From an uncultured virus (IMG/VR IMGVR_UViG_3300033994_001671) (lineage: Duplodnaviria; Heunggongvirae; Uroviricota; Caudoviricetes): 64,000 bases of DNA. The first letter of the stretch is position 1, and each line of letters opens with the position of its first letter. Position numbers and translations under genes: made by a program. The stretch covers positions 1 to 64,000 of the IMG/VR virus record IMGVR_UViG_3300033994_001671. The stretch is one strand, 5' to 3'. A model generated the notes under the pieces. The model searched no databases. It had not been told where the DNA came from and was given only the letters and a program-made list of their open reading frames with translations. Shown in pieces: positions 8,155 through 46,071 of this stretch.

Positions 8155-8607
8155 ATGGCAAATGGTGTAACATACGGTATTACTTTTCCTTTTAAAGATT
8201 CGCTAAATGGTAAATTTTTGGATTTATCAGATACAAGTGAAGAAGAAATTAGAAGTAGTTTAATACATTTATTACTTACAAGAAAAGGTAGTAGATATTT
8301 TATGCCAAACTTTGGGACAAGATTATATGAGTTTATTTTTGAACCACTTGATAGTCCTACTTTTGACCAAATAGAGACAGAAATAAAAGAAGCGGTTGAA
8401 ACTTACATACCAGGATTAACAATTACTTCAGTTAAAATTGAACCAGCGGTTGAGACTCAAGATACTTTACAAATAAATAATGAGTCGGCAACTGAATTTA
8501 ATTTTACTAATACTCCTGAAATTGAATACACCGCAAAAGTAAGAATAAATTATAATATTACAAATAATGTATTTAATACCGCAGGATTTGTAATTATTAA
8601 TATATAA
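8155..8607 (+). CDS. Baseplate wedge subunit, gp25/GPW family
   Basis: GITFPF, LIHLLLTRKGSRYFMPNFGTRLYEFIFEP motif. Confidence 0.9.
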   Translation: MANGVTYGITFPFKDSLNGKFLDLSDTSEEEIRSSLIHLLLTRKGSRYFMPNFGTRLYEFIFEPLDSPTFDQIETEIKEAVETYIPGLTITSVKIEPAVETQDTLQINNESATEFNFTNTPEIEYTAKVRINYNITNNVFNTAGFVIINI

Positions 8608-8611
8608 AACT

Positions 8612-30728: not shown

Positions 30729-30733
30729 ATAAA

Positions 30734-31597
30734 ATGGCAACATCACGACCTTTTGCATATAATACAGGCTCAACAATTTCAGGGACAGAACAAGTTGGAA
30801 GTATTGCTATTGGATACCCAACAAGTGGTTTTACATCCACAGGTTTAAGATGGTGGAATGGGCCTGATGAAGATTTGGGATATGTTATTGCTCACACCGT
30901 ACCGTCAGGAACACAACCAAATCCTGTTGGAGTTCCTGCTTATATCGGTTTTTGGAGAACACCAAGTAAGACAGATAATAACTTTATTAGTTTATCTCAG
31001 TATGTATCAAGTTTTACCGGAACACCACAAACATTTGCAAGTGCTTCAGCGGCTAAGACATGGTTAAACTCGGCGGGATATTGGACATCTTGGGATTTAA
31101 GTTATACTGCAGGAGTATTTAAAACAACTTATAGTGGGTACTTTAATGATAATGTTAATTTCTTTGCAACCGCAACTCCCGCATCAGTAGGTGGAAATCC
31201 TGCGACTTCAGTACAAACCACCGAGATAACAGAACCCCCAACCAGTGACGGTGAGAATTTCAGTTGTCAATGGTTAGGTTATTTCAAACCAACTACTACA
31301 GAAACTTACACATTCTTTACTTCATCTGATGATGCTTCCTATGTTTGGGTTGGTAGTAATAGTATTTCAGGATTTACAACAACAAACTCAACAGTTAATA
31401 ACGGTGGATTACATGGGACACAAGAACGTTCAGGTACAATTGCCTTAACTGCTGGTACATATTATCCGTTACGAGTACAATTTGGAGAACTAAGTGGTGG
31501 TGACGTGATGACTTTTAGTTATTCAACTCCGACTATAACAAAAACAACCAACGTAACAGGTTTAATTTTTTATAATTTGGTAACAAGCGGATTTTAA
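30734..31597 (+). CDS. PA14-domain carbohydrate-binding virion protein
   Basis: FSCQWLGYFKP..TETYTFFTSSDDASYVWVG..NGGLHG..LTAGTYYPLRVQFGE..GGD PA14 signature. Confidence 0.8.
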   Translation: MATSRPFAYNTGSTISGTEQVGSIAIGYPTSGFTSTGLRWWNGPDEDLGYVIAHTVPSGTQPNPVGVPAYIGFWRTPSKTDNNFISLSQYVSSFTGTPQTFASASAAKTWLNSAGYWTSWDLSYTAGVFKTTYSGYFNDNVNFFATATPASVGGNPATSVQTTEITEPPTSDGENFSCQWLGYFKPTTTETYTFFTSSDDASYVWVGSNSISGFTTTNSTVNNGGLHGTQERSGTIALTAGTYYPLRVQFGELSGGDVMTFSYSTPTITKTTNVTGLIFYNLVTSGF

Positions 31598-31667: not shown

Positions 31668-32912
31668 ATGAAAATTTTTATACAAGTTGCCTCTTACAGA
31701 GACCCCCAACTAATCCCAACTATACAGTCAGCATTGGAAAATGCTAAACGACCTGAAAACTTAGTTTTTGGTATTGCTCGTCAGTTTCATCCTGATGATA
31801 ATTTTGATAATTTAGATGAATATAGGAATGATGAAAGATTTAGAATAATCGATATTCCATACACCGAATCCAAAGGAGCTTGTTGGGCAAGAAATCAAAT
31901 ACAACAAGTATATGGTAAGGAAACTTACACTCTTCAAATTGACTCACACATGAGGTTTGCTCAAAATTGGGATGATGAGATGATTAAGATGGTTAAACAA
32001 CTTCAAAAGAAAGGATATAAGAAACCTTTATTAACAGGTTATGTTTCATCCTTTGACCCTGACAATGACCCCAACCTACGTGTTAACGAACCATGGAGAA
32101 TGGCGTTTGATAGATTTATTCCTGAAGGTGCGGTTTTCTTTTTACCTGAAACAATTCCTGGTTGGCAAAATTTAACTGAACCTGTTACCGCAAGATTTTA
32201 CTCGGCTCACTTCTGTTTTACTCTTGGAAAATTTGCTAAAGAAGTTCAACACGACCCTGAGTTTTATTTTCATGGTGAAGAGATTTCAATCGCTGCAAGA
32301 GCATACACTCATGGATATGATTTATTCCACCCACATAAAGTTTTAATTTGGCATGAATATACTCGTAAGGGTAGAACTAAACAATGGGATGACGATAAAC
32401 AATGGGTTGATAAGAATAATTTTGCTCATAAGAAAAATCGTTCTCTATTCGGTATGGATGGTGAGGAAGATATGAATCACGGGAAGTATGGGTTTGGTAA
32501 AGTTAGAACTTTAAGAGATTATGAAAAATATTCAGGTCTTTTATTTTCAAAGAGAGCCGTTCAACAATATACGTTAGATAAAGGTTATCCACCAAATCCA
32601 AATAACTTCAATTCAGAAGAAGAATGGTTAAAGTCATTTACATCGGTATTCAAACATTGTATTGATATTGGGTTTACTCAAGTACCTGAAAAGGATTATG
32701 ACTTTTGGGTTGTTGCGTTCCATAATGAATTAGATGAAACCATTTACAGACAAGATGCTGATAAAGGTGAGGTTGATAGAATGTTAAGAGACCCTGATGG
32801 TTATTGTAAAGTTTGGAGAGAGTTCTTAACTGATTCAAAACCTAAATATTGGGTTGTTTGGCCTCACTCGGAATCTAAAGGATGGTGTGATAGAATAACA
32901 GGAAATTTATAA
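31668..32912 (+). CDS. GT60-like polypeptide N-acetylglucosaminyltransferase (Skp1 GlcNAc-transferase-like)
   Basis: IFIQVASYRDP, SKGACWAR, LQIDSHMRF..NWD, FHGEEIS..ARAYTHGYD match recalled family motifs. Confidence 0.8.
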   Translation: MKIFIQVASYRDPQLIPTIQSALENAKRPENLVFGIARQFHPDDNFDNLDEYRNDERFRIIDIPYTESKGACWARNQIQQVYGKETYTLQIDSHMRFAQNWDDEMIKMVKQLQKKGYKKPLLTGYVSSFDPDNDPNLRVNEPWRMAFDRFIPEGAVFFLPETIPGWQNLTEPVTARFYSAHFCFTLGKFAKEVQHDPEFYFHGEEISIAARAYTHGYDLFHPHKVLIWHEYTRKGRTKQWDDDKQWVDKNNFAHKKNRSLFGMDGEEDMNHGKYGFGKVRTLRDYEKYSGLLFSKRAVQQYTLDKGYPPNPNNFNSEEEWLKSFTSVFKHCIDIGFTQVPEKDYDFWVVAFHNELDETIYRQDADKGEVDRMLRDPDGYCKVWREFLTDSKPKYWVVWPHSESKGWCDRITGNL

Positions 32913-32915
32913 GAT

Positions 32916-33626
32916 ATGAAATTTACATTTGCTACTTTTTGTTTTGGTGAAAGATATTATAACCAAGTTAATAGATTTATTGGTGATATCGTAGAATCGG
33001 ATTATAAAACAAATTTGGTTGTTATTACCGATGACCCAAGTAAGATTAATAATCAAGAATTTGTTCACACTTTCAACATTAATGATTTTAATCCAAATTA
33101 TTTGGAGTATGCTAAAAACTACTATGATTTTGATTTTTCAGTTAAGAGATATTCGTTAAGAGCTGCTTTAAGTATTGGTTTTACTAAAATGATTTTAGTT
33201 GATTGTGATATGAGAGTTAACCCATCTTTCTTTAATGAAGAAAAGATTTTAGGAGCGTTTGATGAGAATTGTTTATCAGGGCCAGTAACATATAATTTTA
33301 ACGAACAAGTTCATACCAATAGTGAATTAGGTAGACGATTACTTGAGTATGAAAAGTATTTCAATCATGAGGTTAATAAAGATAAGTTGGAGGTTATGCC
33401 TGAAGATTGTATCCAATACTTGAGTATTGATGAAGATAAGTTTAATAGTTTTTTAGATACTTGGGACAAGTGTATCGAATATAAAAAAGAAAAAGGTTTG
33501 AGAAACATACCCGCAGGTAACATAGACGAGATGTGTTTCTCGGCGTTATCTAATGGAATTGAAATAAAAAATAACGCTTATAAAGCATCAAATATAATAT
33601 ACGCAGAACATGACAAATGGTACTAA
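32916..33626 (+). CDS. Putative GT-A fold glycosyltransferase
   Basis: TFCFGERY, VVITDDP, ILVDCD (DxD); operon context. Confidence 0.55.
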   Translation: MKFTFATFCFGERYYNQVNRFIGDIVESDYKTNLVVITDDPSKINNQEFVHTFNINDFNPNYLEYAKNYYDFDFSVKRYSLRAALSIGFTKMILVDCDMRVNPSFFNEEKILGAFDENCLSGPVTYNFNEQVHTNSELGRRLLEYEKYFNHEVNKDKLEVMPEDCIQYLSIDEDKFNSFLDTWDKCIEYKKEKGLRNIPAGNIDEMCFSALSNGIEIKNNAYKASNIIYAEHDKWY

Positions 33627-34464
33627 AATAATTTCAGCAATTTATGAATTAAAATATGTTGAAGGGATTAATAGTGAAAGATATAAAAATTTTCCATTAT
33701 TGGTTGCAACGATTAAAAACATAATTTATCCTGAATATCGTTACGTAATTTATACTGACCAAAATTCATATGATAAGTTTAATTTAAAGTATGAATTTAA
33801 TTTCCCAAATGTTGAATTTAAATTTAAAGAATTAAATACATCTGAAACTTGTGAATTAATTGACAGAATTAGAACTCAAGAATTATCAGGTGGAATTAAC
33901 TATGATAGAATTTATTGTGTAAACAATTATTTGGAAGTTGTTTTAAATAAACTTCAATTCTTAATTGATGAGTCACATGATTGTGATAATATCTTTTGGA
34001 TTGATGCTGGTTTGATTGGAACATCTTGTCATGACGGGTGGAGAGATTATATGGCTCCGTTAATTAACTCAAAAAACTTTTTGGATAAGGTGGTTGATAA
34101 GATAAATCAACATGGATTTATCCATTTAAAAGGTAATTCAATTGTCATGAATTATGAAACGGTTGCTAAGTTTAACGACCTATTTGGTGTTGAATTAAAG
34201 GTTGTTCCTGGATGTCTATTTGGTGGAACATCAGAAAAAGTTAGACATATTTTAGACGGATATTTAGACATTTTTAATCAATACTTAACCACACATAACC
34301 AACTTATTAGTGAACAAGAGGTTCTTACGGCTATTACAGGTAAACATTCGGATGAATGTCACGCTTTTGAATTTGGTGATTGGTTAGACTTACAAAAAGC
34401 GTTTTTAGACATTTTAGACATTTATGATGAGACAAAATATGTAAGGGAGAAGTGTTATGTTTAG
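33610..34464 (+). CDS. WlaTC/HtrL-like putative glycosyltransferase
   Basis: VIYTD, NKLQFL, IFWIDAGL, GCLFGG, SEQEVL; paralogous to the N-half of the 35017 gene. Confidence 0.6.
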   Translation: MTNGTKIISAIYELKYVEGINSERYKNFPLLVATIKNIIYPEYRYVIYTDQNSYDKFNLKYEFNFPNVEFKFKELNTSETCELIDRIRTQELSGGINYDRIYCVNNYLEVVLNKLQFLIDESHDCDNIFWIDAGLIGTSCHDGWRDYMAPLINSKNFLDKVVDKINQHGFIHLKGNSIVMNYETVAKFNDLFGVELKVVPGCLFGGTSEKVRHILDGYLDIFNQYLTTHNQLISEQEVLTAITGKHSDECHAFEFGDWLDLQKAFLDILDIYDETKYVREKCYV

Positions 34465-35020
34465 TCTTAACATTGTTTGTACTTCAATTGGGAGAGAAAC
34501 TCTACCAAGATTAATTGAGTCATTCAAAGACCAATTAGACCCAACAGATATTTTTACAATAATCTCAGATATTAATCACGACTTTGTTTCAGAAGTATTA
34601 TCAAGATATGAGTTTAAATTCAAAGTTAATCACATATTAAATCAAGGGGAACAAAAATGGAAATACGGACATCCGTTAATTAATGAAAACATTAATTCAT
34701 TAGAAGGTGATTTTATAATGTTTGCCGATGATGATGATAGATACACTGAAGACGCATTTAAAGTAATCAAAGAAACTATTAAAGATAAAAACAAATTATA
34801 CATATTCAAACACAATTGGTTAGGTGATATTAATTGGAGATTAAAAGATTTCACAAGAGGTAATGTAGGGAAATGTATGGGAGTGATTCCAAACACACAT
34901 AATTTACCGATGTTCCAAGAAGATGTTTTTGGGGATGTTATTTTTTATGAAGAGATAGGTCAAATGTTTGAAAGTGAATTTGTTGATTACATAATCTATA
35001 AAGTTAGACATACGGAATGA
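34457..35020 (+). CDS. GT2-like glycosyltransferase
   Basis: CTSIGRETLPRLIES, GDFIMFADDDD. Confidence 0.75.
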   Translation: MFSLNIVCTSIGRETLPRLIESFKDQLDPTDIFTIISDINHDFVSEVLSRYEFKFKVNHILNQGEQKWKYGHPLINENINSLEGDFIMFADDDDRYTEDAFKVIKETIKDKNKLYIFKHNWLGDINWRLKDFTRGNVGKCMGVIPNTHNLPMFQEDVFGDVIFYEEIGQMFESEFVDYIIYKVRHTE

Positions 35021-36687
35021 GTAATATTACATTAGTTACAGGATTGTGGAATATTGGAAGAGAAAATCTTGAAGAAGGTTGGTCTCGTTCTTTTTCACAT
35101 TATTTAGAAAAATTTGAACAACTATTAAAAGTTGAAGAAAACTTAATAATTTTTGGTGAAAAGGAATTGGAGGAATTTGTTTGGGAAAGAAGAGACCAAA
35201 GTAATACCCAATTTATTTTAAGAGATAAGAGTTGGTTTGTTGAAAATGACTTTTACAATAAAATACAAGAAATTAGAAATAATCCTGAATGGTATAATCA
35301 ATCAGGGTGGTTAAAAGAATCAACACAAGGTAGATTGGAAATATACAATCCACTTGTTATGTCAAAAATGTTTATATTAAATGATGCAAGGATTTTTGAT
35401 AAGTTTAATTCAGAGTTTTTATTTTGGATTGACGCTGGACTTACAAATACTGTTCACCCCGGATATTTCACACATGATAAGGTGTTAGATAATTTAAGTA
35501 AGTATATAGATAAGTTTACATTTGTTTGTTTTCCATACGATGCAAGTAATGAGATACACGGATTTTCATATCCAAAGATTAATCAGTGGGCTGAAGATGA
35601 TGTAAAAAAAGTTGCTCGTGGTGGATTTTTTGGAGGTCCTAAAGAAACCATATCACAGATGAATGGTGAATACTATAACCTATTGAATGATACACTATCA
35701 AGTGGGTACATGGGAACGGAAGAGTCAATATTTTCAATAATGGTTTATAAGTTAAGTGAATACATAAATTATTTTGAAATTGAATATAATGGTTTATTTG
35801 GGAAATTCTTTGAGGATTTAAAAGATGATGTTTTAGTTAAAAAGACAGAGTTTGTTAAAATTCAAAATGATTTAGATATAGATAAAGTTGCGTTGTATGT
35901 AATAACATTCAATTCACCAAAACAATTTGAAACATTAATTAAATCTATGATTGAATATGATAGGGATTTCTTGGAAAAACCAAAGAAATTTTTATTGGAT
36001 AACTCTACAGATTTATCAACAACTGAAGAATACTTAAAACTTTGTAAAGAATATGACTTTGAACATATTAAAAAAGATAACATAGGTATTACAGGTGGAA
36101 GACAATGGACTGCGGAACACTTTGATGAAACGGGGTTGGACTATATGTTATTCTTTGAGGATGATATGTTTTTTTACTCACAAAAAAATGAAGTGTGTAG
36201 AAATGGGTTTAACAGATATGTAAGTAATCTATATCAAAAAAGTTTAGAGATAGTTAACAAAGAAAACTTTGATTTTTTAAAATTAAATTTTTCAGAGTTT
36301 TATGGTGATAATAGTACTCAGTGGAGTTGGTATAATGTTCCACAAAATTTCAGAGAACAACATTGGCCAAAAAATCCAAGATTACCTCAACAGGGTTTAG
36401 ACCCAAATGCTCCAAAAACAAAATTCAACGAGATTAAAACACATAAAGGTTTACCATACGCTTCAGGTGAAATTTATTTGTGTAACTGGCCAATAATCCT
36501 TTCAAAAAGTGGGAGTTATAAATGTTATTTGGAAACAAAATATCAACACCCATATGAACAAACTTTAATGTCTCATAACTTCCAAAACACAATTAAAGGT
36601 AAATTAAAACCAGGTATTTTATTACTCACTCCTACCGAACATGATAGATTTGAACATTATGATAGTAATTTAAGAAAAGAATGTTGA
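35017..36687 (+). CDS. Two-domain glycosyltransferase: HtrL-like + GT2-like
   Basis: ITLVTGLWNIGR, SKMFIL, FWIDAGL, GGFFGG, GTEE; then VITFNS, LLDNST, NIGITGGR, FFEDDM. Confidence 0.75.
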   Translation: MSNITLVTGLWNIGRENLEEGWSRSFSHYLEKFEQLLKVEENLIIFGEKELEEFVWERRDQSNTQFILRDKSWFVENDFYNKIQEIRNNPEWYNQSGWLKESTQGRLEIYNPLVMSKMFILNDARIFDKFNSEFLFWIDAGLTNTVHPGYFTHDKVLDNLSKYIDKFTFVCFPYDASNEIHGFSYPKINQWAEDDVKKVARGGFFGGPKETISQMNGEYYNLLNDTLSSGYMGTEESIFSIMVYKLSEYINYFEIEYNGLFGKFFEDLKDDVLVKKTEFVKIQNDLDIDKVALYVITFNSPKQFETLIKSMIEYDRDFLEKPKKFLLDNSTDLSTTEEYLKLCKEYDFEHIKKDNIGITGGRQWTAEHFDETGLDYMLFFEDDMFFYSQKNEVCRNGFNRYVSNLYQKSLEIVNKENFDFLKLNFSEFYGDNSTQWSWYNVPQNFREQHWPKNPRLPQQGLDPNAPKTKFNEIKTHKGLPYASGEIYLCNWPIILSKSGSYKCYLETKYQHPYEQTLMSHNFQNTIKGKLKPGILLLTPTEHDRFEHYDSNLRKEC

Positions 36688-36716: not shown

Positions 36717-37085
36717 ATGGAATTTTTTATTAACAAAGGTGCAACACTGCCTGTTCTTAAAATGCAAGTGGTTAAAGATGGTATTGCTGACATAACAGAG
36801 TTTATGTCATTAATAGAAAACTCGTTGATTTATTTTTCCATGATAGATGTTAAAACGGGAGGTTACAAGATTCTGAATAAGAAAGGAGGGTTTGTTGAAA
36901 AGACATTTATTGACCCAAACGCTGAGACAGAGTACTATGTTTATTATAAATTCACTTCAAGCGATACAAGTAGAGAGGGACTTTATGAAGGAGAGTTTGT
37001 TTTTATCACTGATACAGGAACTTATATTTTACCAATCAGAGAAAAACTTACGATAAAAATTGGTAATAGTTACGTATCTATTTAA
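36717..37085 (+). CDS. BppU-like (baseplate upper protein N-terminal-like) small structural protein
   Basis: FFINKGATLPVL...YKFTSSDT...GLYEGEF...LP pattern. Confidence 0.55.
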   Translation: MEFFINKGATLPVLKMQVVKDGIADITEFMSLIENSLIYFSMIDVKTGGYKILNKKGGFVEKTFIDPNAETEYYVYYKFTSSDTSREGLYEGEFVFITDTGTYILPIREKLTIKIGNSYVSI

Positions 37086-37086
37086 T

Positions 37087-38295
37087 ATGGAATGGTTTAT
37101 TAAGAAAAATTCAACGTTACCAGTTTTCCAAGTTGAGATATCAAAAGACGGAAGAAGTGATTTTGGTTTAGATGAAAATATTTCGGGTAATACAATTTTA
37201 ATTTCGGTATATGATGAAGTTAATAAGAAATATATTGTAGCGTCTAAAGAATGTTATATTACAACAAGTGCGTCTACTGTTAATCCTTTAGATATTACTT
37301 ATTATGTAAACTATCAATTTACAAGTAGAGAAACTAAAAATGAGGGTAAGTTTTTAGTTCAGTTTTTAAAACAATCATCTCAGGGTATTGTTATTATACC
37401 ATTACCTCAAAAAATTTATGTAAGTGTTCTTAGTAGTTTTAGTTTAAACTCTTACTCTTATCCGACTAATAATCCTTACATTATTGATAGACCATGTTGT
37501 AACGCACCAGCTCTACCTGCAACACCTACACCAACACCATCTATTACTCCAAGTGTTACTCCAACAATGTCTTTAACACCATCACTAACTCCAACTCTCA
37601 CACCTACAACAACTACAACACCTACATTTACTCCTACACCATCTATTACAACACCACAATATTATGCTTATGTATTCGCAGAACCACAAGATTCTTCGGC
37701 AAGTGGTTCGTTGTATGGATTAGGAAGTTATATGTATTACTTATCGGATGGTATAACACCTGATACTAATGTTAATTGGTACGGATGGGGTAACTCGGGA
37801 GCTCTTCCATTACCAACAAATCCAAACTACAGTTATATGATGAACAAATACTCATCATACTCAGGATTTACAGGTGGAACAGGAAACTTTGTTAAACCTA
37901 CAGACTTAAAAGGTGCGTTAAATCAATTCCCAAATACTATCAATGATAGTTTTGGATGTTTAATTAACCAATACACTTTTGAAACAATAGAAGTTAATAA
38001 TAGTGATATTAACACTAGTTTACAGTACATGTATACGATTTGGATACCACTTGATGGTGTCGGAGGAACTTTAAATAATATGAGTGTAAATGTTGGTTAT
38101 CAATCACAACCTTGTGACTTTGATATTTTAGCAACTCCTGACCCTAAAATTTCGGTTGGGGATATTACAATAACTCCAGGTGGAGCGATACCTGCGGGAA
38201 CTTATAGAGTATTATACTTATCAAACGATGGATTGTTACCTCCAAAACTTCCTGATAATAACAATTATTATTTCAAAGGGGTGTATAAAACCTAA
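37087..38295 (+). CDS. BppU-like domain + Thr-Pro linker + domain shared with 25870 gene
   Basis: MEWFIKKNSTLPVF paralogous to 36717 gene; TPTPT linker; YAYVFAEP..GSYM..TYRVLY..YYFKG. Confidence 0.7.
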   Translation: MEWFIKKNSTLPVFQVEISKDGRSDFGLDENISGNTILISVYDEVNKKYIVASKECYITTSASTVNPLDITYYVNYQFTSRETKNEGKFLVQFLKQSSQGIVIIPLPQKIYVSVLSSFSLNSYSYPTNNPYIIDRPCCNAPALPATPTPTPSITPSVTPTMSLTPSLTPTLTPTTTTTPTFTPTPSITTPQYYAYVFAEPQDSSASGSLYGLGSYMYYLSDGITPDTNVNWYGWGNSGALPLPTNPNYSYMMNKYSSYSGFTGGTGNFVKPTDLKGALNQFPNTINDSFGCLINQYTFETIEVNNSDINTSLQYMYTIWIPLDGVGGTLNNMSVNVGYQSQPCDFDILATPDPKISVGDITITPGGAIPAGTYRVLYLSNDGLLPPKLPDNNNYYFKGVYKT

Positions 38296-38325: not shown

Positions 38326-41300
38326 ATGGCAATACCGTATCAAAATCCAATAAGTGCGTCCCAAATTACAGGACCTTTCAGTGTAGCGAGAACAAGTCCA
38401 TACGGAACCAATTTTAATGTTTTAAATGTTGGTGGATGGCAAGAGGCGGCATACCTTACTAATTTAGGTTTAACATTTAGTGGGCAAGGACAACAACAAT
38501 TAAGTGTTAATAATATACCTATTAATATTAACATTGGTAACGGTACATTTTCTCCAACATATTTAACTTTAAATTCTGACAATTTCTCTTCGGGTAGAAG
38601 AAGATTGGGTATGATTGTTTGGGTTAATGAAACTGAAACGGCATATCAATATCAAATAGACAATTACAATGATTTATGGGATGCTGCAGTAAGTGCTAAT
38701 TCTGTAACTCAATTATCTTACGAAACTATTATAAAGAATAATACACCTGAAGGTCAGGCATTTATTAATGCTTGGACAGGCTCAACTATTGAAGGTGTTA
38801 GTGGTGTTACAAGAGAAAATGCGAGATGGAGAGTTTTTGCTCAAGGTACTGAATTAACGGGTGGTACTTATTTTTCAGGTACAAGTACATTAGAATTATA
38901 TAATAGTGATGGAACTATTATTTCTGTAACAGGTATTACGGCATCTGGTTCTAATGGTAGTTCTGGAACATCAGGTTCTGCGGGTACAAGTGGTTCTTCA
39001 GGTAGCTCTGGTTCTTCAGGTTCAGCAGGTACAAGTGGAACTTCAGGTAGTTCTGGTTCATCAGGTAGTTCTGGTTCTGCGGGTACATCAGGAACAAGTG
39101 GAACGTCTGGTTCATCAGGGGATAGCGGTTCTTCGGGAAGTGCTGGAACTAGCGGTAGTTCAGGTAGTGCTGGAACATCAGGTATTAATGGTGTTGATGG
39201 TGCAAGTGGAACATCAGGTACAAGTGGTTCATCAGGACTATCAGGTACTGGAGGTTCTTCGGGTACATCAGGAACATCTGGCTCCTCAGGTTCATCAGGT
39301 TCTTCAGGAAGTGTGGGAACAAGTGGAACGTCAGGTTCTTCGGGAAGTTCTGGTACAAGCGGAACTTCAGGAACTTCAGGTTCAAGTGGTTCATCGGGAA
39401 GTTCAGGTTCAAGTGGTTCATCGGGTACATCAGGTAGTACTGGTACTAGTGGTAGTAGTGGAACAAGCGGAACGTCGGGTTCATCAGGTTCTGCGGGAAG
39501 TAGTGGTTTATCAGGTAGTGTTGGAACATCTGGCTCAAGTGGTAGTTCAGGTAGTTCTGGTTCATCAGGTACATCTGGCTCAAGTGGTAGCTCTGGTTCA
39601 ACAGGTTCGTCAGGTAGTAGTGGTATAACTGGGTCTTCAGGTACGAGTGGTAGTTCTGGCACATCAGGTTCATCTGGTAGTTCAGGTTCTTCAGGTTCAT
39701 CTGGTAGTTCAGGTTCTTCAGGTAGTACTGGTTCATCAGGAACTAGCGGAACATCAGGAACATCAGGTACAAGTGGTAGTTCAGGTTCTACAGGAACATC
39801 GGGTTCTACAGGAACATCGGGTTCATCAGGTAGTAGTGGCTCAAGTGGAAGTTCAGGATTGACAGGTTCATCAGGAACATCGGGTTCATCAGGGACATCG
39901 GGTTCATCAGGTAGTTCTGGTTCAAGTGGTAGTAGCGGAAGTACAGGGTCTTCGGGCACAAGTGGTAGTTCTGGTACATCAGGTTCATCAGGAAGTTCAG
40001 GTTCATCAGGTTCTAGCGGTAGTGTTGGAACTTCGGGAACAAGTGGTTCAAGTGGAAGTTCAGGTTCTTCAGGAAGTGTAGGAACATCAGGTACAAGTGG
40101 AAGTTCAGGTTCGTCTGGCTCAAGTGGAAATACAGGTTCAAGTGGAACGAGTGGTTCATCAGGTACATCTGGCTCAAGTGGTAGTTCAGGTTCGTCTGGC
40201 TCAAGTGGTTCAAGTGGAAGTTCAGGTTCATCTGGAAGTGTAGGAACATCAGGTACAAGTGGTAGTTCAGGTTCTTCAGGTAGTTCAGGTGTTAATGGTT
40301 CTTCAGGGACTAGTGGTAGTTCGGGAACATCTGGTTCTTCAGGAAGTTCGGGTTCATCAGGTTCTAGTGGTAGTTCAGGAACATCTGGCTCAAGCGGGTC
40401 TTCTGGTTCAAGTGGAAGTACTGGTTCTTCAGGAAGTGCAGGTACATCGGGTAGTGTAGGAACTAGCGGTAGTTCTGGTTCATCTGGTTCTTCAGGTAGT
40501 ACTGGCTCAAGTGGTACTTCAGGTTCTTCGGGAAGTTCTGGTACTAGTGGTTCATCAGGTAGTGTAGGTACTAGTGGTTCATCAGGTAGTTCTGGTTCAA
40601 GTGGTAGTAGCGGAAGTACAGGGTCTTCTGGTACAAGTGGGAGCTCAGGAACATCTGGTACAAGCGGTAGTTCTGGGTCATCTGGTTCAGTTGGTACAAG
40701 CGGTTCATCAGGTAGTGTTGGAACATCTGGTTCATCAGGTTCTGTTGGTACTTCAGGAACATCGGGTTCATCAGGTAGTACTGGTTCAAGTGGAAGTTCA
40801 GGAAGTAGTGGTAGTGTAGGAACAAGTGGTTCTTCAGGGACATCTGGCTCAACAGGTACTTCAGGAACATCAGGTTCAAGTGGGTCTTCAGGTAGTTCGG
40901 GTTCATCAGGAAGTTCAGGTACAAGCGGAACATCAGGTTCAGTAGGAACAAGTGGTTCATCGGGAAGTTCAGGGTCAACAGGAACTTCAGGTTCAAGTGG
41001 GTCTTCAGGTAGTTCAGGAAGTAGCGGAACATCTGGTTCTAGTGGAAGTGTTGGAACTTCTGGTACATCAGGAACAAGTGGTTCATCGGGAAGTTCTGGT
41101 TCTGCCGGTACAAGTGGAAGTGTAGGAACAAGTGGTACTTCAGGTTCATCTGGCTCAAGTGGAAGTTCAGGTTCAACAGGTAGTTCAGGTACTAGCGGTT
41201 CATCTGGAAGTTCTGGTTCTGCAGGTACAAGTGGAAGTTCTGGTTCTTCAGGTAGTACGGGTTCAAGAGGAACTAGCGGAACATCAGGAAGTTCTGGTTC

Positions 41301-44300
41301 TGTTGGAACTAGTGGAACGTCTGGTTCAGTAGGAACTAGCGGAACATCTGGAACAAGTGGTTCATCAGGTTCTAGCGGTAGCGCTGGAAGCTCAGGAACG
41401 TCAGGTTCTAGCGGTAGCACAGGTTCAAGTGGTTCTACTGGCACGTCAGGTTCTTCAGGAACAAGTGGTTCTGTAGGTACAAGCGGAACATCTGGTTCCT
41501 CAGGAAGTGTAGGTACTTCAGGTACTAGTGGAAGCTCAGGAAGTGTAGGAACATCTGGTTCAAGTGGTACTACTGGTACCTCAGGAACATCAGGTAGTTC
41601 AGGTTCTAGCGGAAGTTCAGGTTCAAGTGGAACTAGTGGTAGTTCAGGAAGTTCTGGTTCATCGGGTAGTAGCGGTAGTTCTGGTAGTGTAGGAACATCT
41701 GGTTCTTCAGGAAGTTCTGGTTCAAGTGGTTCATCCGGAAGTTCAGGTTCTACAGGTTCAAGAGGAACATCGGGTACTTCAGGAACTAGCGGTTCAAGTG
41801 GAAGTACAGGAACTAGTGGTACATCAGGTTCAACGGGGACTTCAGGAACAAGTGGTTCAACTGGAACATCAGGTACAAGTGGAAGTACAGGGTCTTCAGG
41901 AAGCTCTGGTACGTCGGGTAGTGTAGGTACTAGCGGTAGTTCAGGCTCTAGCGGAAGTACAGGAACTAGTGGAACCTCTGGTTCAACAGGGACTAGCGGT
42001 TCATCAGGTAGTTCAGGTTCAAGTGGAAGTTCAGGTAGTAGTGGTAGCGTTGGAACTTCTGGTACATCAGGTTCAAGTGGTTCTTCAGGAAGTGCAGGTT
42101 CTAGTGGAAGTACTGGAACCTCAGGAACATCAGGTAGTTCTGGTTCTTCAGGTAGTTCAGGTTCAAGTGGTAGTGTTGGAACATCAGGTTCATCGGGTAG
42201 TGTAGGTACTAGCGGTTCTTCTGGTTCAAGTGGAAGTTCAGGTTCTAGCGGAAGTACAGGGTCAAGCGGAACTAGTGGTAATTCAGGTTCGTCTGGTTCA
42301 AGTGGAAGTTCAGGTTCATCTGGAAGTGTAGGAACAAGTGGAACCTCAGGTTCAGTAGGTACAAGTGGTACATCAGGAAGTTCAGGCTCAAGTGGTAGTA
42401 CGGGTTCATCTGGTACTAGCGGCTCTTCGGGAAGTACTGGGTCATCTGGAAGTTCAGGTTCAACAGGAACTAGCGGTTCTTCAGGAACATCAGGTAGTAG
42501 CGGTTCTAGTGGTAGTGCTGGAACAAGTGGTAGTTCTGGTTCTGTTGGTACATCTGGGTCAAGCGGAAGTAGTGGTTCATCGGGAAGTGTAGGCACATCC
42601 GGTTCTTCAGGCTCTAGCGGTAGTGCTGGAAGTTCAGGAAGTGTTGGTACATCAGGGACTAGTGGTAGTTCAGGTTCTTCTGGTTCAAGTGGTAGTGTTG
42701 GTACATCAGGTACTAGCGGTTCATCAGGTACTAGCGGTTCATCAGGGTCAAGCGGAACTAGCGGTAGTTCAGGTTCTAGCGGTTCTTCAGGAAGTTCTGG
42801 GTCATCTGGCTCTTCAGGTAGTACAGGTTCAAGAGGAACTAGCGGTACTTCAGGAACTAGTGGTAGTGTAGGTACATCCGGTTCTTCAGGTAGTTCGGGA
42901 ACATCAGGAAGTAGTGGAAGTTCAGGTTCTGCAGGTACAAGTGGAAGTGTAGGAACATCTGGAACTTCTGGTTCAAGTGGGTCATCAGGTTCAAGTGGTA
43001 GTGTTGGAACTAGCGGGTCATCAGGAACAAGTGGTTCGTCAGGTTCTAGCGGTAGTGCTGGAAGCTCAGGAAGTACTGGTTCATCAGGTTCTGCGGGAAG
43101 TGCTGGTACATCAGGGGTTAATGGTTCTTCAGGAACATCAGGTTCTGCTGGCTCAAGTGGAAGTTCAGGTTCTTCAGGTAGTTCGGGTTCAGTAGGTACA
43201 AGCGGAACTTCAGGTTCATCAGGTAGTGCTGGCTCGTCAGGGTCTAGCGGTTCTGTTGGTACTTCAGGTAGTAGTGGAACATCTGGAAGCTCTGGCTCAA
43301 GTGGTAGTGCGGGTTCATCAGGGAGTAGTGGAACTTCAGGTTCATCAGGAAGTTCAGGTTCAAGTGGTAGTACGGGGTCTTCAGGAAGTTCTGGTTCAAC
43401 AGGTTCTAGAGGAACTAGCGGAACATCAGGTTCATCTGGAAGTGTTGGTACTTCAGGAACGTCAGGTTCAGTAGGTTCGTCTGGTTCTTCAGGAACTTCA
43501 GGTTCAGTAGGTACTAGTGGAACATCTGGAAGCTCTGGCTCAAGTGGTAGTGCGGGGTCATCAGGGAGTACTGGTACAAGTGGAAGTTCGGGTTCAACTG
43601 GTACTTCAGGTTCAAGTGGAAGTAGTGGCTCATCAGGTTCTTCAGGGAGTACTGGTACAAGTGGAACATCAGGTTCTAGTGGAAGTAGTGGTAGTTCAGG
43701 GTCATCTGGTTCTGCAGGTACATCAGGAAGTAGTGGAAGTTCAGGGTCTAGCGGTAGTTCTGGTTCATCAGGTACATCGGGAACTAGCGGAAGTTCAGGA
43801 ACTTCAGGTAGTAGTGGGTCATCAGGTTCAACGGGTAGTTCAGGAAGTAGTGGAACAAGTGGTTCATCTGGTACTTCAGGTTCATCTGGCTCAAGTGGTA
43901 GTACGGGTTCTTCAGGAAGCTCAGGCTCAAGCGGAAGTTCTGGTTCAACAGGTTCTAGAGGAACAAGTGGAACTTCTGGTTCGTCAGGAACTAGCGGAAC
44001 GTCAGGAACATCAGGCTCAAGCGGAAGTGTTGGAACATCTGGTTCGTCAGGAAGTACAGGAACATCAGGTAGTGCTGGTTCTTCTGGCTCAAGTGGTAGT
44101 TCAGGTTCAAGTGGAAGTACTGGAACATCAGGTTCATCAGGTTCTAGCGGTAGTACTGGAAGCTCAGGAACGTCAGGTTCTGTAGGTACAAGCGGGACAT
44201 CAGGAACTTCGGGAAGTACTGGTTCTAGTGGTAGTTCAGGAAGTTCTGGTTCATCGGGTAGTACAGGTACTTCAGGAAGCTCAGGTTCAAGTGGAACTAG

Positions 44301-45615
44301 TGGTTCTTCAGGGTCTAGCGGTTCATCGGGTTCTAGTGGAAGTTCAGGGTCATCTGGTAGTACAGGTTCAAGAGGAACTAGCGGTACTTCAGGAACTAGT
44401 GGTAGCTCAGGAACATCTGGTTCTTCGGGTACATCAGGGTCAGGTGGTTCTTCAGGAAGTAGTGGTAGTTCTGGAACTTCAGGTTCTTCAGGAACAAGCG
44501 GAAGCTCAGGAACATCAGGTTCAAGTGGAAGCACGGGTAGTTCAGGCTCGTCAGGTAATACTGGAAGTTCTGGTACATCGGGTTCTTCGGGTACAAGTGG
44601 TTCTTCTGGGTCATCAGGCTCAAGTGGGAATACTGGTTCTTCGGGAACTTCTGGTTCATCAGGAACTAGCGGTTCTTCAGGAAGTTCAGGTTCAAGTGGT
44701 AATACAGGTTCTTCGGGTACTAGCGGTTCATCAGGTTCTTCTGGCTCATCAGGTTCAAGTGGAAGCTCAGGTTCTTCAGGTATTACAGGAAGTAGTGGAA
44801 CTAGCGGTTCTTCAGGAAGTGCTGGTTCATCAGGTAGCTCAGGTTCAGGTTCATCAGGAACAAGCGGATTAGATGGTATTAGTGGAACATCTGGTTCATC
44901 AGGTACATCTGGCTCAAGTGGTAGCTCTGGTTCAACAGGTTCGTCAGGTAGTAGTGGTATAACTGGGTCTTCAGGTACGAGTGGTAGTTCGGGAACATCA
45001 GGTTCATCGGGAACAAGTGGTTCTAGTGGAAGTTCGGGTTCTTCAGGTAGTTCGGGGTCTAGCGGAAGTACGGGTTCAAGAGGAACAAGTGGTTCATCAG
45101 GCACATCAGGTAGTCAAGGTAATAAAGGTGGTCTTCAATACCAATACGGTGGTGGGACAGGAGGTGCACCTGCTTCAGGTCAATTTACTTATCAAGGAGC
45201 GGGTGTAGCGGTGTATGATTTGAAATTTGACGTAGTAACTGCTGACTCAGCAGATTTAAGTGATTATTTTTTAAACTTAGTTGGAACACAAGGGATTGTA
45301 TATTTAATTTTTAATTTAAATGGTTCAAATAAAATTGATATTTACTACTTCAACAATGTAAGTGTAAGTGGTAGTGATTATTTGTTTACAGGTGCATTAT
45401 ATACAAATGGTGGTGATACAACACTTACAGTAAATGACGTATGTGCAGTTACTATTATTGTTAACGGTACATCTGGAACATCAGGTTCATCAGGTACTTC
45501 AGGTTCATCGGGTATTACTGGTTCATCAGGTACCTCAGGAGCTGCAGGAGCTGCGGGTGGAACATTCACATTAGGACTTGTTTATACAACAGCAAACAAT
45601 TTTAACTTTATATAA
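38326..45615 (+). CDS. Giant collagen-like Gly-X-Y (GSS/GTS) fibre protein, 2429 aa
   Basis: ~207-aa N-terminal domain, ~2060 aa of Gly-X-Y without Pro, short C-terminal domain. Confidence 0.85.
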   Translation: MAIPYQNPISASQITGPFSVARTSPYGTNFNVLNVGGWQEAAYLTNLGLTFSGQGQQQLSVNNIPININIGNGTFSPTYLTLNSDNFSSGRRRLGMIVWVNETETAYQYQIDNYNDLWDAAVSANSVTQLSYETIIKNNTPEGQAFINAWTGSTIEGVSGVTRENARWRVFAQGTELTGGTYFSGTSTLELYNSDGTIISVTGITASGSNGSSGTSGSAGTSGSSGSSGSSGSAGTSGTSGSSGSSGSSGSAGTSGTSGTSGSSGDSGSSGSAGTSGSSGSAGTSGINGVDGASGTSGTSGSSGLSGTGGSSGTSGTSGSSGSSGSSGSVGTSGTSGSSGSSGTSGTSGTSGSSGSSGSSGSSGSSGTSGSTGTSGSSGTSGTSGSSGSAGSSGLSGSVGTSGSSGSSGSSGSSGTSGSSGSSGSTGSSGSSGITGSSGTSGSSGTSGSSGSSGSSGSSGSSGSSGSTGSSGTSGTSGTSGTSGSSGSTGTSGSTGTSGSSGSSGSSGSSGLTGSSGTSGSSGTSGSSGSSGSSGSSGSTGSSGTSGSSGTSGSSGSSGSSGSSGSVGTSGTSGSSGSSGSSGSVGTSGTSGSSGSSGSSGNTGSSGTSGSSGTSGSSGSSGSSGSSGSSGSSGSSGSVGTSGTSGSSGSSGSSGVNGSSGTSGSSGTSGSSGSSGSSGSSGSSGTSGSSGSSGSSGSTGSSGSAGTSGSVGTSGSSGSSGSSGSTGSSGTSGSSGSSGTSGSSGSVGTSGSSGSSGSSGSSGSTGSSGTSGSSGTSGTSGSSGSSGSVGTSGSSGSVGTSGSSGSVGTSGTSGSSGSTGSSGSSGSSGSVGTSGSSGTSGSTGTSGTSGSSGSSGSSGSSGSSGTSGTSGSVGTSGSSGSSGSTGTSGSSGSSGSSGSSGTSGSSGSVGTSGTSGTSGSSGSSGSAGTSGSVGTSGTSGSSGSSGSSGSTGSSGTSGSSGSSGSAGTSGSSGSSGSTGSRGTSGTSGSSGSVGTSGTSGSVGTSGTSGTSGSSGSSGSAGSSGTSGSSGSTGSSGSTGTSGSSGTSGSVGTSGTSGSSGSVGTSGTSGSSGSVGTSGSSGTTGTSGTSGSSGSSGSSGSSGTSGSSGSSGSSGSSGSSGSVGTSGSSGSSGSSGSSGSSGSTGSRGTSGTSGTSGSSGSTGTSGTSGSTGTSGTSGSTGTSGTSGSTGSSGSSGTSGSVGTSGSSGSSGSTGTSGTSGSTGTSGSSGSSGSSGSSGSSGSVGTSGTSGSSGSSGSAGSSGSTGTSGTSGSSGSSGSSGSSGSVGTSGSSGSVGTSGSSGSSGSSGSSGSTGSSGTSGNSGSSGSSGSSGSSGSVGTSGTSGSVGTSGTSGSSGSSGSTGSSGTSGSSGSTGSSGSSGSTGTSGSSGTSGSSGSSGSAGTSGSSGSVGTSGSSGSSGSSGSVGTSGSSGSSGSAGSSGSVGTSGTSGSSGSSGSSGSVGTSGTSGSSGTSGSSGSSGTSGSSGSSGSSGSSGSSGSSGSTGSRGTSGTSGTSGSVGTSGSSGSSGTSGSSGSSGSAGTSGSVGTSGTSGSSGSSGSSGSVGTSGSSGTSGSSGSSGSAGSSGSTGSSGSAGSAGTSGVNGSSGTSGSAGSSGSSGSSGSSGSVGTSGTSGSSGSAGSSGSSGSVGTSGSSGTSGSSGSSGSAGSSGSSGTSGSSGSSGSSGSTGSSGSSGSTGSRGTSGTSGSSGSVGTSGTSGSVGSSGSSGTSGSVGTSGTSGSSGSSGSAGSSGSTGTSGSSGSTGTSGSSGSSGSSGSSGSTGTSGTSGSSGSSGSSGSSGSAGTSGSSGSSGSSGSSGSSGTSGTSGSSGTSGSSGSSGSTGSSGSSGTSGSSGTSGSSGSSGSTGSSGSSGSSGSSGSTGSRGTSGTSGSSGTSGTSGTSGSSGSVGTSGSSGSTGTSGSAGSSGSSGSSGSSGSTGTSGSSGSSGSTGSSGTSGSVGTSGTSGTSGSTGSSGSSGSSGSSGSTGTSGSSGSSGTSGSSGSSGSSGSSGSSGSSGSTGSRGTSGTSGTSGSSGTSGSSGTSGSGGSSGSSGSSGTSGSSGTSGSSGTSGSSGSTGSSGSSGNTGSSGTSGSSGTSGSSGSSGSSGNTGSSGTSGSSGTSGSSGSSGSSGNTGSSGTSGSSGSSGSSGSSGSSGSSGITGSSGTSGSSGSAGSSGSSGSGSSGTSGLDGISGTSGSSGTSGSSGSSGSTGSSGSSGITGSSGTSGSSGTSGSSGTSGSSGSSGSSGSSGSSGSTGSRGTSGSSGTSGSQGNKGGLQYQYGGGTGGAPASGQFTYQGAGVAVYDLKFDVVTADSADLSDYFLNLVGTQGIVYLIFNLNGSNKIDIYYFNNVSVSGSDYLFTGALYTNGGDTTLTVNDVCAVTIIVNGTSGTSGSSGTSGSSGITGSSGTSGAAGAAGGTFTLGLVYTTANNFNFI
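39556..39656 (+). repeat. 101-bp exact direct repeat, copy 1
   Basis: tctggttcatcaggtacatctggctcaag...ggtacgagtggtagttc, identical to 44890-44990 by manual comparison. Confidence 0.85.
44890..44990 (+). repeat. 101-bp exact direct repeat, copy 2
   Basis: Identical to 39556-39656; 5334 bp apart, same reading frame. Confidence 0.85.
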
Positions 45616-45651: not shown

Positions 45652-46071
45652 ATGCCAGCAAATACAGCACCAATTTTTACACTAAGACCTGAGATTATGT
45701 GGAATGTTAGCATTACGGCTGCGAATAATACGGGAGATTTAACCTCAGGTACAGTTTATCCTGTTTTTACCGCAGGTACCGAAGGGAGTTATGTACAAAA
45801 AATAAGATTTAGACATACAGGTGCAAATTCGGCGGCAACTGTTGGTCGTGTTTGGATTAATAATGGTTCAACAACTACTACCGCAGCTAATAACACTTTA
45901 TTTGATGAAATAACAATTGCGGCAAATGCAACATTTGTTACCAACGCAGCGTCAACCAACTATGAATTACCACTTATGTTTGCTTTACCTCCTAATTATA
46001 TAATTTATGTAACAATCGGTGCCGCAGCCGCTGGTGGTATTGACGCAACGGTTATAGGAGGGGACTACTAA
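45652..46071 (+). CDS. Small fibre-associated virion protein
   Basis: MPANTAPIF..., beta-rich 139 aa directly after the giant fibre gene. Confidence 0.6.
   Translation: MPANTAPIFTLRPEIMWNVSITAANNTGDLTSGTVYPVFTAGTEGSYVQKIRFRHTGANSAATVGRVWINNGSTTTTAANNTLFDEITIAANATFVTNAASTNYELPLMFALPPNYIIYVTIGAAAAGGIDATVIGGDY

Follow-up and report, generated by a model that had tools for sequence, protein, structure and literature searches.

A putatively collagen-like giant fibre of proline-free Gly-Ser/Thr-Ser triplets in a T4-like phage from lake water

The giant fibre gene and its repeat

The subject of this study is a giant fibre gene in the uncultured virus IMGVR_UViG_3300033994_001671 of the IMG/VR database, of which we have analysed positions 1 to 64,000 (the window, 64,000 nucleotides in length) out of a virus contig of 74,988 nt. 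This contig, which carries genes for UvsX-like, DnaB-like and SbcCD-like proteins, a ribonucleotide reductase, a primase and, at positions 8155-10483, baseplate wedge proteins resembling gp25 and gp6, is a fragment of a T4-like myovirus. Between positions 38326 and 45615 of the plus strand, the listing of open reading frames (ORFs) in the window contains a single frame of 2429 codons. It encodes a protein (P0001) that is built for its largest part of Gly-X-Y triplets and that may assemble into a collagen-like fibre. Its N-terminal domain (N-domain; residues 1-207, positions 38326..38946), a conserved fibre-head or virion-attachment module, is followed by a main array of 656 uninterrupted triplets (residues 208-2175, 38947..44850). 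A register break of two residues at about residues 2176-2177 (44851..44856), where the local sequence reads Gly-Ser-Gly-Ser-Ser, separates the main array from a second one of 31 triplets (residues 2178-2270, 44857..45135), which leads into a beta-rich globular knob that is inserted in line as a stretch of 110 residues (residues 2271-2380, 45136..45465). Behind the knob, a third array of 11 triplets (residues 2381-2413, 45466..45564) precedes a conserved C-terminal tail of 16 residues (residues 2414-2429, 45565..45612), all of these features being encoded on the plus strand.

In total, the protein contains 698 Gly-X-Y triplets encompassing 2094 residues, which is close to the approximately 685 triplets and 2060 residues counted in a preliminary description made from the DNA sequence alone. 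The X position is occupied by Ser in 465 and by Thr in 208 cases, with 25 other residues, whereas Ser (555) dominates the Y position, where it is accompanied by Thr (58), Val (40), Ala (26), Arg (7) and 12 others. These counts conform to the previous characterization of X as Ser or Thr and of Y as mostly Ser with occasional Thr, Val, Ala or Arg. The same is true for the reported lack of proline and near lack of charge, as the 1396 X and Y positions hold no proline and 11 charged residues, and the eight prolines of the whole protein are all found outside of the triplets. The overall composition is 43% Ser, 30% Gly and 12% Thr. The fibre is matched by the Pfam family Collagen (PF01391) with an E-value of 6e-277 and a score of 894 bits compared to a cut-off of 27.2, and no Pfam match to PfN, PfC or Phage_fiber_2 domains was found in either the whole fibre or its end domains. 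With the rise per residue of 0.286 nm that is characteristic of a collagen helix, the 698 triplets would extend over a predicted length of 599 nm, essentially the 0.6 µm that had been estimated before. An ORF of 2078 codons on the opposite strand, which runs across the array (38868-45104, minus strand), is probably a mechanical by-product of the repeat composition and not a gene.

The conservation of Gly stands out from that of the other two positions. Within the 656 consecutive triplets not a single Gly is substituted, whereas residues other than Ser and Thr are found at 3.6% of the X and 12.2% of the Y positions; by our own arithmetic, the chance expectation for Gly to remain unsubstituted is 0.964^656, or about 4e-11. 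At the same time, the underlying DNA is degenerate. All four Gly codons are used in the main array (374, 210, 40 and 32 times), as are both classes of Ser codons (TCN/AGY 254/190 at X and 348/177 at Y), the 656 triplets are encoded by 140 distinct 9-nt units and the longest exact internal repeat measures 53 nt. The program TRF reports 118 overlapping arrays, nearly all with 60-87% matches, whose periods are without exception multiples of 9 nt, no single one of them prevailing. The fact that no Gly was lost despite this degeneracy implies selection at the level of the protein, with Gly being under the strongest constraint. The G+C content of 41-49% in this region, compared to about 31% in its surroundings, is a consequence of the prevalence of GGN and WSN codons.

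The length of the array is reproduced by short-read assemblies, and assembly through it is possible in principle since its exact repeats of at most 53 nt are shorter than a read. Among the 28 loci in IMG/VR that encode the N-domain, three (L001, L003 and L007) contain an ORF with the same length of 2435 amino acids. L001 differs from the window over 7.3 kb by two substitutions and one 18-nt indel, and L007 is 99.9% identical over 20.6 kb. An expansion of the array during assembly, the concern raised in the preliminary description, is thus not apparent in short-read assemblies, four of which agree but for this 18-nt indel. Further evidence comes from lake-water metagenomes. We have identified 20 runs holding 66-88% of the sampled words of the phage, and Logan contigs from four lake-water runs contain exact pieces of about 190-560 nt from inside the array as well as the 18-nt variant. 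We consider it very improbable that the array or its length would be an artefact of assembly, or that the region would be a simple-sequence expansion in decay that does not give rise to a single protein. Such a scenario would account for the 14 of the 28 related loci whose contigs end inside the array, which weighs against the length as read here, for the lack of a Logan contig spanning the array in the four runs, for the many chimeric joints in these contigs and for a 1-nt indel truncating the ORF of the relative L010. It is at odds with the shortness of the exact internal repeats, with the agreement of the four assemblies, with the recurrence of exact interior pieces in three of the four runs and with the reading frame itself, which is open over 2429-4766 codons in diverged relatives, whereas the other forward frames of the window do not exceed 224 codons. 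The joints were rejected as evidence on length, their sides of 20-26 nt being cross-matches between repeats. As for L010, its ORF of 1295 amino acids corresponds to the first 3.9 kb of a gene for a 1998-aa protein (L008) with a single 1-nt indel, and is the result of a frameshift or sequencing error and not a shorter array.

Relatives, end domains and a predicted trimer

The giant fibre has relatives in which the ORF stays open while the length of the array differs. One such gene, identical in three contigs, encodes 4766 amino acids with 1431 triplets, and its 1168 uninterrupted triplets, corresponding to about 1 µm, would to our knowledge be the longest unbroken collagen-type sequence. Paired genes for proteins of 1998 and 2636 residues are found in four contigs, and a partial ORF in L022 exceeds 3337 residues. 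The gene in the window is collinear with the one encoding the 4766-aa protein, at 97-99% identity, over the first 3.3 kb or so only. At one locus, a single gene for 4766 amino acids in one lineage is found in place of the two genes for 1998 and 2636 amino acids in another, and the C-terminus of the 1998-aa protein is formed by another type of globular domain, some 150 residues in size. The arrays of the relatives are interrupted by knobs of 110-175 residues, which indicates a beads-on-a-string architecture.

The N-domain links the protein to a much larger group of phage fibres. With the beginning of a 665-aa paralogue encoded in the same window it shares 48.6% identity, and it is also present in 436 database proteins of 365-2000 residues and in 33 of 1335-4251 residues. 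Some of these proteins carry short collagen regions or a Peptidase_S74 domain, an intramolecular chaperone of trimeric fibres. Among 151 listed N-domain proteins, nine contain at least ten triplets, all nine being proline-free, and none contains 100 or more, the rest carrying other fibre repeats. Given its wide distribution and the small number of triplet carriers, the N-domain is thus a fibre head in general use, and giant Ser/Thr arrays are special to a small lineage.

The knob, in contrast to the N-domain, is rare, with six matches among 1.84 billion representative sequences. In all four relatives whose sequences were read (P0126-P0129), it is flanked on both sides by Gly-X-Y repeats, which in P0128 contain proline in the form of GPQ, GPP and GPT triplets. 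The Ser/Thr repeats thus occupy a position in the structure that elsewhere belongs to genuine collagen-like sequence. A model of the knob with predicted local confidence (pLDDT) values of 55-77 showed no clear match to a solved fold, including C1q/TNF-like domains, in searches with Foldseek and VIA. The best Foldseek hit in the PDB, the heads of reovirus sigmaC (E 0.047), and the best Z-score of 5.6 in a wide VIA search are both at background level, and a search of the ESM Atlas returned only phage clusters with scores of at most 0.90. The array itself matches a 780-residue chain annotated as 'spindlefibril | axialfibril' in the PDB entries 8zxl and 9ius (E 2.5e-100) through its Gly-X-Y periodicity. 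Collagens of the PDB that were retrieved in sequence searches were dismissed, as they matched through the Gly periodicity alone. At the end of the protein, the 16-residue tail is 91-100% identical in relatives with different arrays, and this conservation suggests that it might act as a docking peptide, for which the Gly_rich_2 proteins encoded downstream would be possible partners.

To model the C-terminal part as a trimer, we used three copies of residues 2226-2429, encompassing 15 triplets, the knob, 11 triplets and the tail, together with an alignment of nine rows. The resulting prediction reached an interface score (ipSAE) of 0.75 in three runs compared to 0.00 for the best control, with a contact agreement of at least 89% and a partner pLDDT of at least 73. 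In a calibration of this score, which employed two copies and other alignments, the mark was reached by 20 of 30 solved homo-pairs and by 1 of 23 single chains. The predicted interface includes both repeat segments and the knob, and the confident contacts of the first copy in its first repeat involve residues 4, 7, 10 and so forth up to 28, all of them Gly, in accordance with the geometry of a triple helix.

The periodicity of Gly-X-X with small residues is also found in proteins folding into bundles of polyproline-II (PPII) helices, and the preliminary description had included a bundle resembling the snow flea antifreeze protein among its options. The repeat would then fold back on itself in this way, or it would act as an ice-binding or other compact Gly-rich domain, and the Gly_rich_2 proteins downstream illustrate that Gly-rich folds occur in the same module. 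This option is not favoured since the array is devoid of a turn-like super-period: there are no turn-forming breaks or dominant periods and just one break in 687 triplets. Moreover, there are repeats on either side of the in-line knob, for which the model predicts a parallel trimer, and the two-fold variation in array length between close relatives fits a linear fibre and not a packed domain. We thus regard a PPII bundle as hardly probable.

A more serious challenge to a triple helix comes from the composition and from the structure predictions, and the following features weigh against it. Proline or hydroxyproline at X or Y and charge pairs, the usual stabilizers of collagen, are missing, and Ser and Thr are poor triple-helix formers. 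Monomer models obtained with AF2 are of poor quality, with pLDDT values of 53 for the N-domain, 49 for the C-terminal region and below 50 for the repeats. In some relatives, regular register breaks (Gly-Ser-Gly) recur, with a period of 11 residues in P0069 and of 17 residues in the last part of the protein of 2636 residues (L034:9401-10066), which fits a continuous triple helix badly. Finally, the program used for the complex may have memorized collagen and impose this fold on any Gly-X-Y sequence, and its score was calibrated on two copies. All of this, apart from the last point, would be compatible with a disordered and heavily O-glycosylated mucin-like tether or brush that is attached to the virion by the N-domain and holds knob and tail at a distance. 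Such a tether would resemble serine-rich repeat adhesins, and the phage encodes protein glycosyltransferases that might modify it. However, for a tether of this kind there is no need to place Gly at every third residue or to keep the register unbroken. Nevertheless, the register is maintained over 656 triplets in the giant protein and 1168 in its relative without the substitution of a single Gly in the array, the knob is embedded in collagen-type and partly proline-containing sequence in all relatives read, and Gly lines the interface of the three-copy model. On balance, we consider a mucin-like tether unlikely, if still worth serious attention.

Neighbouring genes and candidate glycosyltransferases

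The genomic environment supports the reading of the gene as a functional phage fibre gene. Downstream of the wedge genes, the contig continues with about 40 kb of large structural genes that do not belong to known families, and the giant gene is part of a baseplate and fibre block with a collagen-like tail fibre nearby. Its location in a phage structural module together with non-collagenous end domains, the N-domain and the knob, is what characterizes a phage collagen-like tail fibre. Related contigs have sizes of 240-242 kb at an estimated completeness of 82%, which is indicative of a jumbo phage. In the gp6-like wedge protein, the closest cultured phages are only 26-27% identical, and no match was found among GenBank phages by megablast of 30-50 kb or by tblastn of the N-domain. 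No tRNA was found.

In close relatives the order of genes around the giant fibre is maintained, and in the window all of these genes are located on the plus strand. The block starts with the short paralogous fibre of 665 residues (26884..28881), which shares the N-domain and combines 51 Gly-Ser/Thr-Ser triplets with a C-terminal part resembling tail fibres. Between both fibres, Pfam identifies two proteins with carbohydrate-binding folds (28851..31597), one containing a Laminin_G_3 and the other a PA14/GLEYA domain. These are followed by a glycosyltransferase of 414 residues (31668..32912) of the GT60-type Pfam family GlcNAc (PF11397; E 1.4e-68, 232.4 bits versus a cut-off of 21), which also matches phrog_24687 (E 5e-170), by two proteins without family of 236 and 284 residues inside the glycosyltransferase (GT) cluster (32916..34464; no profile matches), by a GT2-like glycosyltransferase of 187 residues (34457..35020; PF00535, 24.8 bits versus a cut-off of 23.3, and weak NCBIfam glycosyltransferase matches) and by an HtrL/YibB-like protein of 556 residues (35017..36687; PF09612, E 5e-13; TIGR02192, 60.6 bits, below cut-off). 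Directly upstream of the giant fibre (36717..38295), there are proteins of 122 (36717-37085) and 411 residues (37060-38295). As judged from overlapping matches, the first of these appears paralogous to the N-terminal part of the second. The 411-aa protein contains a mucin-like linker rich in Pro and Thr, about 50 residues in length, and adjoins the fibre in all close and most of the distant relatives. Downstream of the fibre, a conserved protein of 139 residues (45652..46071) is followed by three tandem paralogues of the family Gly_rich_2 (PF21722; 46263..48969), which are also conserved, comprise about 300 residues each with 30% Gly and end in the same hydrophobic C-terminal motif. These three proteins may be adhesins or partners at the tip of the fibre or factors assisting its assembly. 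For the neighbours of 236, 284, 122 and 139 residues, the N-domain and the knob, no match was obtained in Pfam (E up to 1) or NCBIfam, and sequence searches with the GT60 protein and one Gly_rich_2 protein did not reveal a meaningful relative in the PDB.

Outside of this block, Ig-like segments and repeats of SprB, a gliding adhesin of Bacteroidota, are found in proteins encoded at 23662-25842 and 49247-51277 on the plus strand (E 1.7e-16 and a weaker 1e-4). Relatives of the N-domain on five short contigs of metagenome-assembled genomes are labelled as Bacteroidetes (two), Flavobacterium (one) and Thiobacillus (two). Together, the SprB repeats and these labels provide a weak hint to a host from the Bacteroidota. 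The only long minus-strand ORF besides those that are antisense to plus-strand genes (54173-56647, 824 residues) shows weak matches to beta-propeller and NHL repeats and contains a phrog_15511 segment that recurs in the Laminin_G_3 protein of 625 residues and in the 411-aa neighbour of the fibre.

The GT60, GT2 and HtrL-like genes are located 1.6-6.7 kb upstream of the fibre. As stated in a previous study, characterized GT60 enzymes add GlcNAc to Thr residues of mucin-like proteins (PMC9472816). We have inspected the best 80 of 413 loci in IMG/VR that encode a GT60 homologue for runs of 20 or more triplets up to 10 kb away on either side. A proline-free Ser/Thr run is found at 11 of the 80 loci, all encoding enzymes that are at least 96% identical to the one in the window, and at none of the 69 loci whose enzyme shows an identity of 90% or less. 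In these 69 distant loci, homologues of the HtrL-like, the 122-aa and the 411-aa proteins are kept beside GT60 in 64, 60 and 59 cases, respectively, and an N-domain fibre follows in just seven. In L014-L023, relatives whose arrays reach 946 triplets or more, the GT cluster was not found in the 10 kb upstream, where the 411-aa homologue is the only part of the block that is kept. A GT60 with 47% identity is also encoded in a GT cluster near the baseplate genes of Xanthomonas phage XacN1, whose giant neighbour ORF325 is not collagen-like, and GT60 was thus discarded as a marker of collagen fibres. These findings weaken the case for a glycosylation of the fibre by its immediate neighbours, and the GT operon that had been invoked in the preliminary description carries less weight than supposed, as the cluster persists in the 69 distant loci in absence of an array within 10 kb and as giant arrays exist in relatives without the cluster upstream. 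Instead, the cluster may act on the Pro/Thr-rich linker of the 411-aa neighbour, a P/T/S-rich stretch being found in 13 of 59 distant homologues of this protein.

A second set of enzymes shows a closer relationship to the arrays. Members of the TibC/Aah family (TIGR04414), the bacterial autotransporter heptosyltransferases, act in the cytoplasm, where they attach O-linked sugars to serine residues of a surface adhesin with repetitive sequence. In the 75-kb contig of the window, TIGR04414 was not found, since this contig ends 7.6 kb short of the enzyme gene. A related contig (G006) is 99.9% identical to the window in the region of the fibre, and its sequence coincides at 100% identity with the final 2393 nt of the window's contig before running on, thus representing the same phage. 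Located 7.6 kb past the contig end, a gene encodes a 710-aa fusion of a GT4 and a TibC-like domain (L055:400-2532, plus strand, and L187; TIGR04414, 261.6 bits). Its distance from the fibre, with about 37 kb, places it far from its presumed acceptor, which weighs against the assignment. With respect to the equivalog cut-off of 200 bits, scores for TIGR04414 are 263.8 in G006, 267.2 in G004 and 266.6 in G007, whereas G005, where the TIGR04414-like gene is about 3 kb from the fibre of that phage, is with 193.1 bits just below. Neither PF11397 nor TIGR04414 was found in G001-G003, G008 and G009, contigs that are merely 10-35% complete and therefore do not provide evidence for the absence of the enzymes.

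To quantify the association, we have analysed the best 79 of 342 loci in IMG/VR with a TibC-like enzyme, set aside 20 that belong to the lineage of the window (at least 93% identity) and sorted the remaining 59 by an identity threshold of 90%, which resulted in 27 clusters. In 15 of the 27, a Gly-X-Y run with 20 or more triplets is found no farther than 10 kb away, a count made without phylogenetic correction. Of these 15, 12 runs are Ser/Thr-rich and proline-free and three have a Ser/Thr share of 0.5-0.69, and some arrays are only 356-488 nt away from the TibC-like gene. In controls, a run within the same distance was found in none of 80 baseplate-wedge loci (974 kb) and in none of the 69 distant GT60 loci. 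Although only best-scoring loci were compared, the contrast is large. From this genomic association, a glycosylation of the repeat appears likely, with the GT4-TibC-like fusion as prime candidate for the enzyme and the adjacent GT60/GT2/HtrL cluster as second.

The same data bear on the question whether a collagen-like helix could exist without glycosylation. The helix would then be stabilized by its sheer length, by hydration networks of Ser and Thr, by nucleation at the end domains and by the low temperature of cold lakes, and the glycosyltransferases would act elsewhere, on the linker of the 411-aa protein, on other fibres or on the host surface. In line with such a scenario, the GT60 module with its HtrL-like, 122-aa and 411-aa members persists without collagen arrays in 59-64 of 69 loci, the mucin-like linker is retained in part of the distant homologues, giant arrays exist without the GT cluster upstream and, as described in a review, bacterial collagens devoid of hydroxyproline are stable through hydration networks (PMC8968730). 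Against it stands the fact that 12 of the 27 independent clusters combine a TibC-like enzyme with a proline-free Ser/Thr array within 10 kb, the presence of one such enzyme in the phage itself and the result of a literature search, with most subscription journals being outside of its coverage, that did not turn up a stable triple helix of such composition. We consider a fibre that is left unglycosylated distinctly unlikely.

Proposed architecture and relation to known systems

Taken together, we interpret the giant protein as a trimeric collagen-like virion fibre, which would fold into a triple helix, would probably be O-glycosylated and would serve the long-range capture of the host, and we assign to this reading a probability of about one half. 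It is based on the location of the gene in a fibre module, the N-domain that is shared with other fibres, some of which contain Peptidase_S74, the position of the knob between collagen repeats that in a relative contain proline and the Gly residues at the modelled interface. Three parallel chains would be joined via their end domains, and the N-domain would serve as their anchor on the virion, with the baseplate, next to the short paralogue, as the most probable site. The Gly-Ser/Thr-Ser repeats would zip into a triple helix with Gly in its core and the hydroxyl groups of Ser and Thr pointing outward, resulting in a flexible thread of about 0.6 µm, or about 1.2 µm in the relative, with a small trimeric knob near its end that is followed by the tail peptide. 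As proline is absent and charge nearly so, the exposed hydroxyl groups are probably O-glycosylated, and the sugars, which would be added to Ser and Thr by enzymes of the phage in the cytoplasm of the host, would stabilize and hydrate the helix. The thread would probably be used to catch host cells, or the layers on their surface, reversibly and over long distances. The glycan-stabilized long triple helix of the preliminary description has in this way emerged as the best-supported reading, strengthened by the fibre module, the N-domain, the flanks of the knob and the trimer model, while having lost part of its support from the adjacent glycosyltransferases.

The nearest functional analogue of the fibre is BclA from the nap of the Bacillus exosporium. 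BclA is described as a trimeric filament with a short N-terminal anchor, a central glycosylated Gly-X-Y region and a C-terminal trimerizing domain (PMC10470788), and the title of a reference therein states that the number of triplets is strain-specific and sets the length of the filament. Both proteins combine an anchor domain, which is putative in the fibre, with a Gly-X-Y region of variable triplet number. They differ in that the fibre is part of a phage and not of a spore, in the absence of proline, in its 698 to 1431 triplets within the lineage and in a knob without detectable similarity to a solved fold. The repeats of BclA are mostly Gly-Pro-Thr and span between some tens and a few hundred residues. 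Among the fibre genes of phages, precedents for Gly-X-Y regions are EPclA, encoded by a prophage of E. coli O157:H7, and orf028 of P-SSM2. According to the respective reports, EPclA is a triple helix as shown by circular dichroism, which melts at 42 C and is flanked by non-collagenous trimerization domains, contains proline at about half of the X positions and many charged residues and is not glycosylated (PMC3368898), and 49% of orf028 consists of Gly-X-Y with Pro, Ser and Thr (PMC1079782). Compared to EPclA, the array of the giant fibre is far longer and limited to Ser and Thr, and the PfN and PfC domains of the former are missing. In the review referred to above, proline, threonine, glutamine and charged residues are named as stabilizers of prokaryotic collagens (PMC8968730).

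Other parallels concern the proposed modification. The putative system of phage enzyme and fibre is reminiscent of the pairs TibC-TibA and Aah-AIDA-I, as the same phage encodes a TIGR04414 enzyme above the equivalog cut-off. Differences are found in the presumed acceptor, which is collagen-like and not a beta-helical passenger, and in the enzyme, which is fused to GT4 and encoded 37 kb away. The 414-aa protein is a clear member of PF11397 and in this respect related to the GT60 enzyme OGNT of T. cruzi, but the phage gene does not travel with Ser/Thr collagen arrays, and we know of no bacterial or phage member of this family with a known substrate. In the cuticle collagen of Riftia, which still contains proline, the idea is that glycosylated Thr at the Y position can replace hydroxyproline as stabilizer of a very long collagen. 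In the phage fibre, by contrast, Thr is mainly found at X (208 compared to 58 at Y) and Ser dominates Y. The regions of collagen-like sequence known so far from phage fibres are short and contain proline or charged residues, and within its coverage the literature search turned up neither a proline-free or Gly-Ser-Ser collagen nor anything comparable in phages. What is new is thus the composition of Ser and Thr only, the extreme and variable length, the knobs arranged as beads on a string and the link to a TibC-type enzyme.

As a tentative extension, which we consider possible and still rather doubtful, jumbo phages of freshwater would build micrometre-long collagen helices from Gly, Ser and Thr alone, stabilized by dense O-glycans that are made by the phage, and use them as a fishing line that enlarges their capture radius several-fold. 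If 2000-3500 residues without proline and nearly without charge would indeed form a triple helix, the minimal sequence rules of the collagen fold would be reset, and with dense O-glycosylation a third route to its stability would emerge besides hydroxyproline and networks of charge and hydration. The idea of a stabilization by glycans, which so far originates from worm cuticle collagen and model peptides, would become testable by bacterial expression with the phage's own enzymes, and the fibre would offer a natural template for long recombinant collagen materials devoid of hydroxyproline. For the phage, fibres of 0.6-1.2 µm would exceed the long tail fibre of T4, which measures about 145 nm, by a factor of 4-8, and would thus change estimates of the radius of adsorption in dilute lake water.

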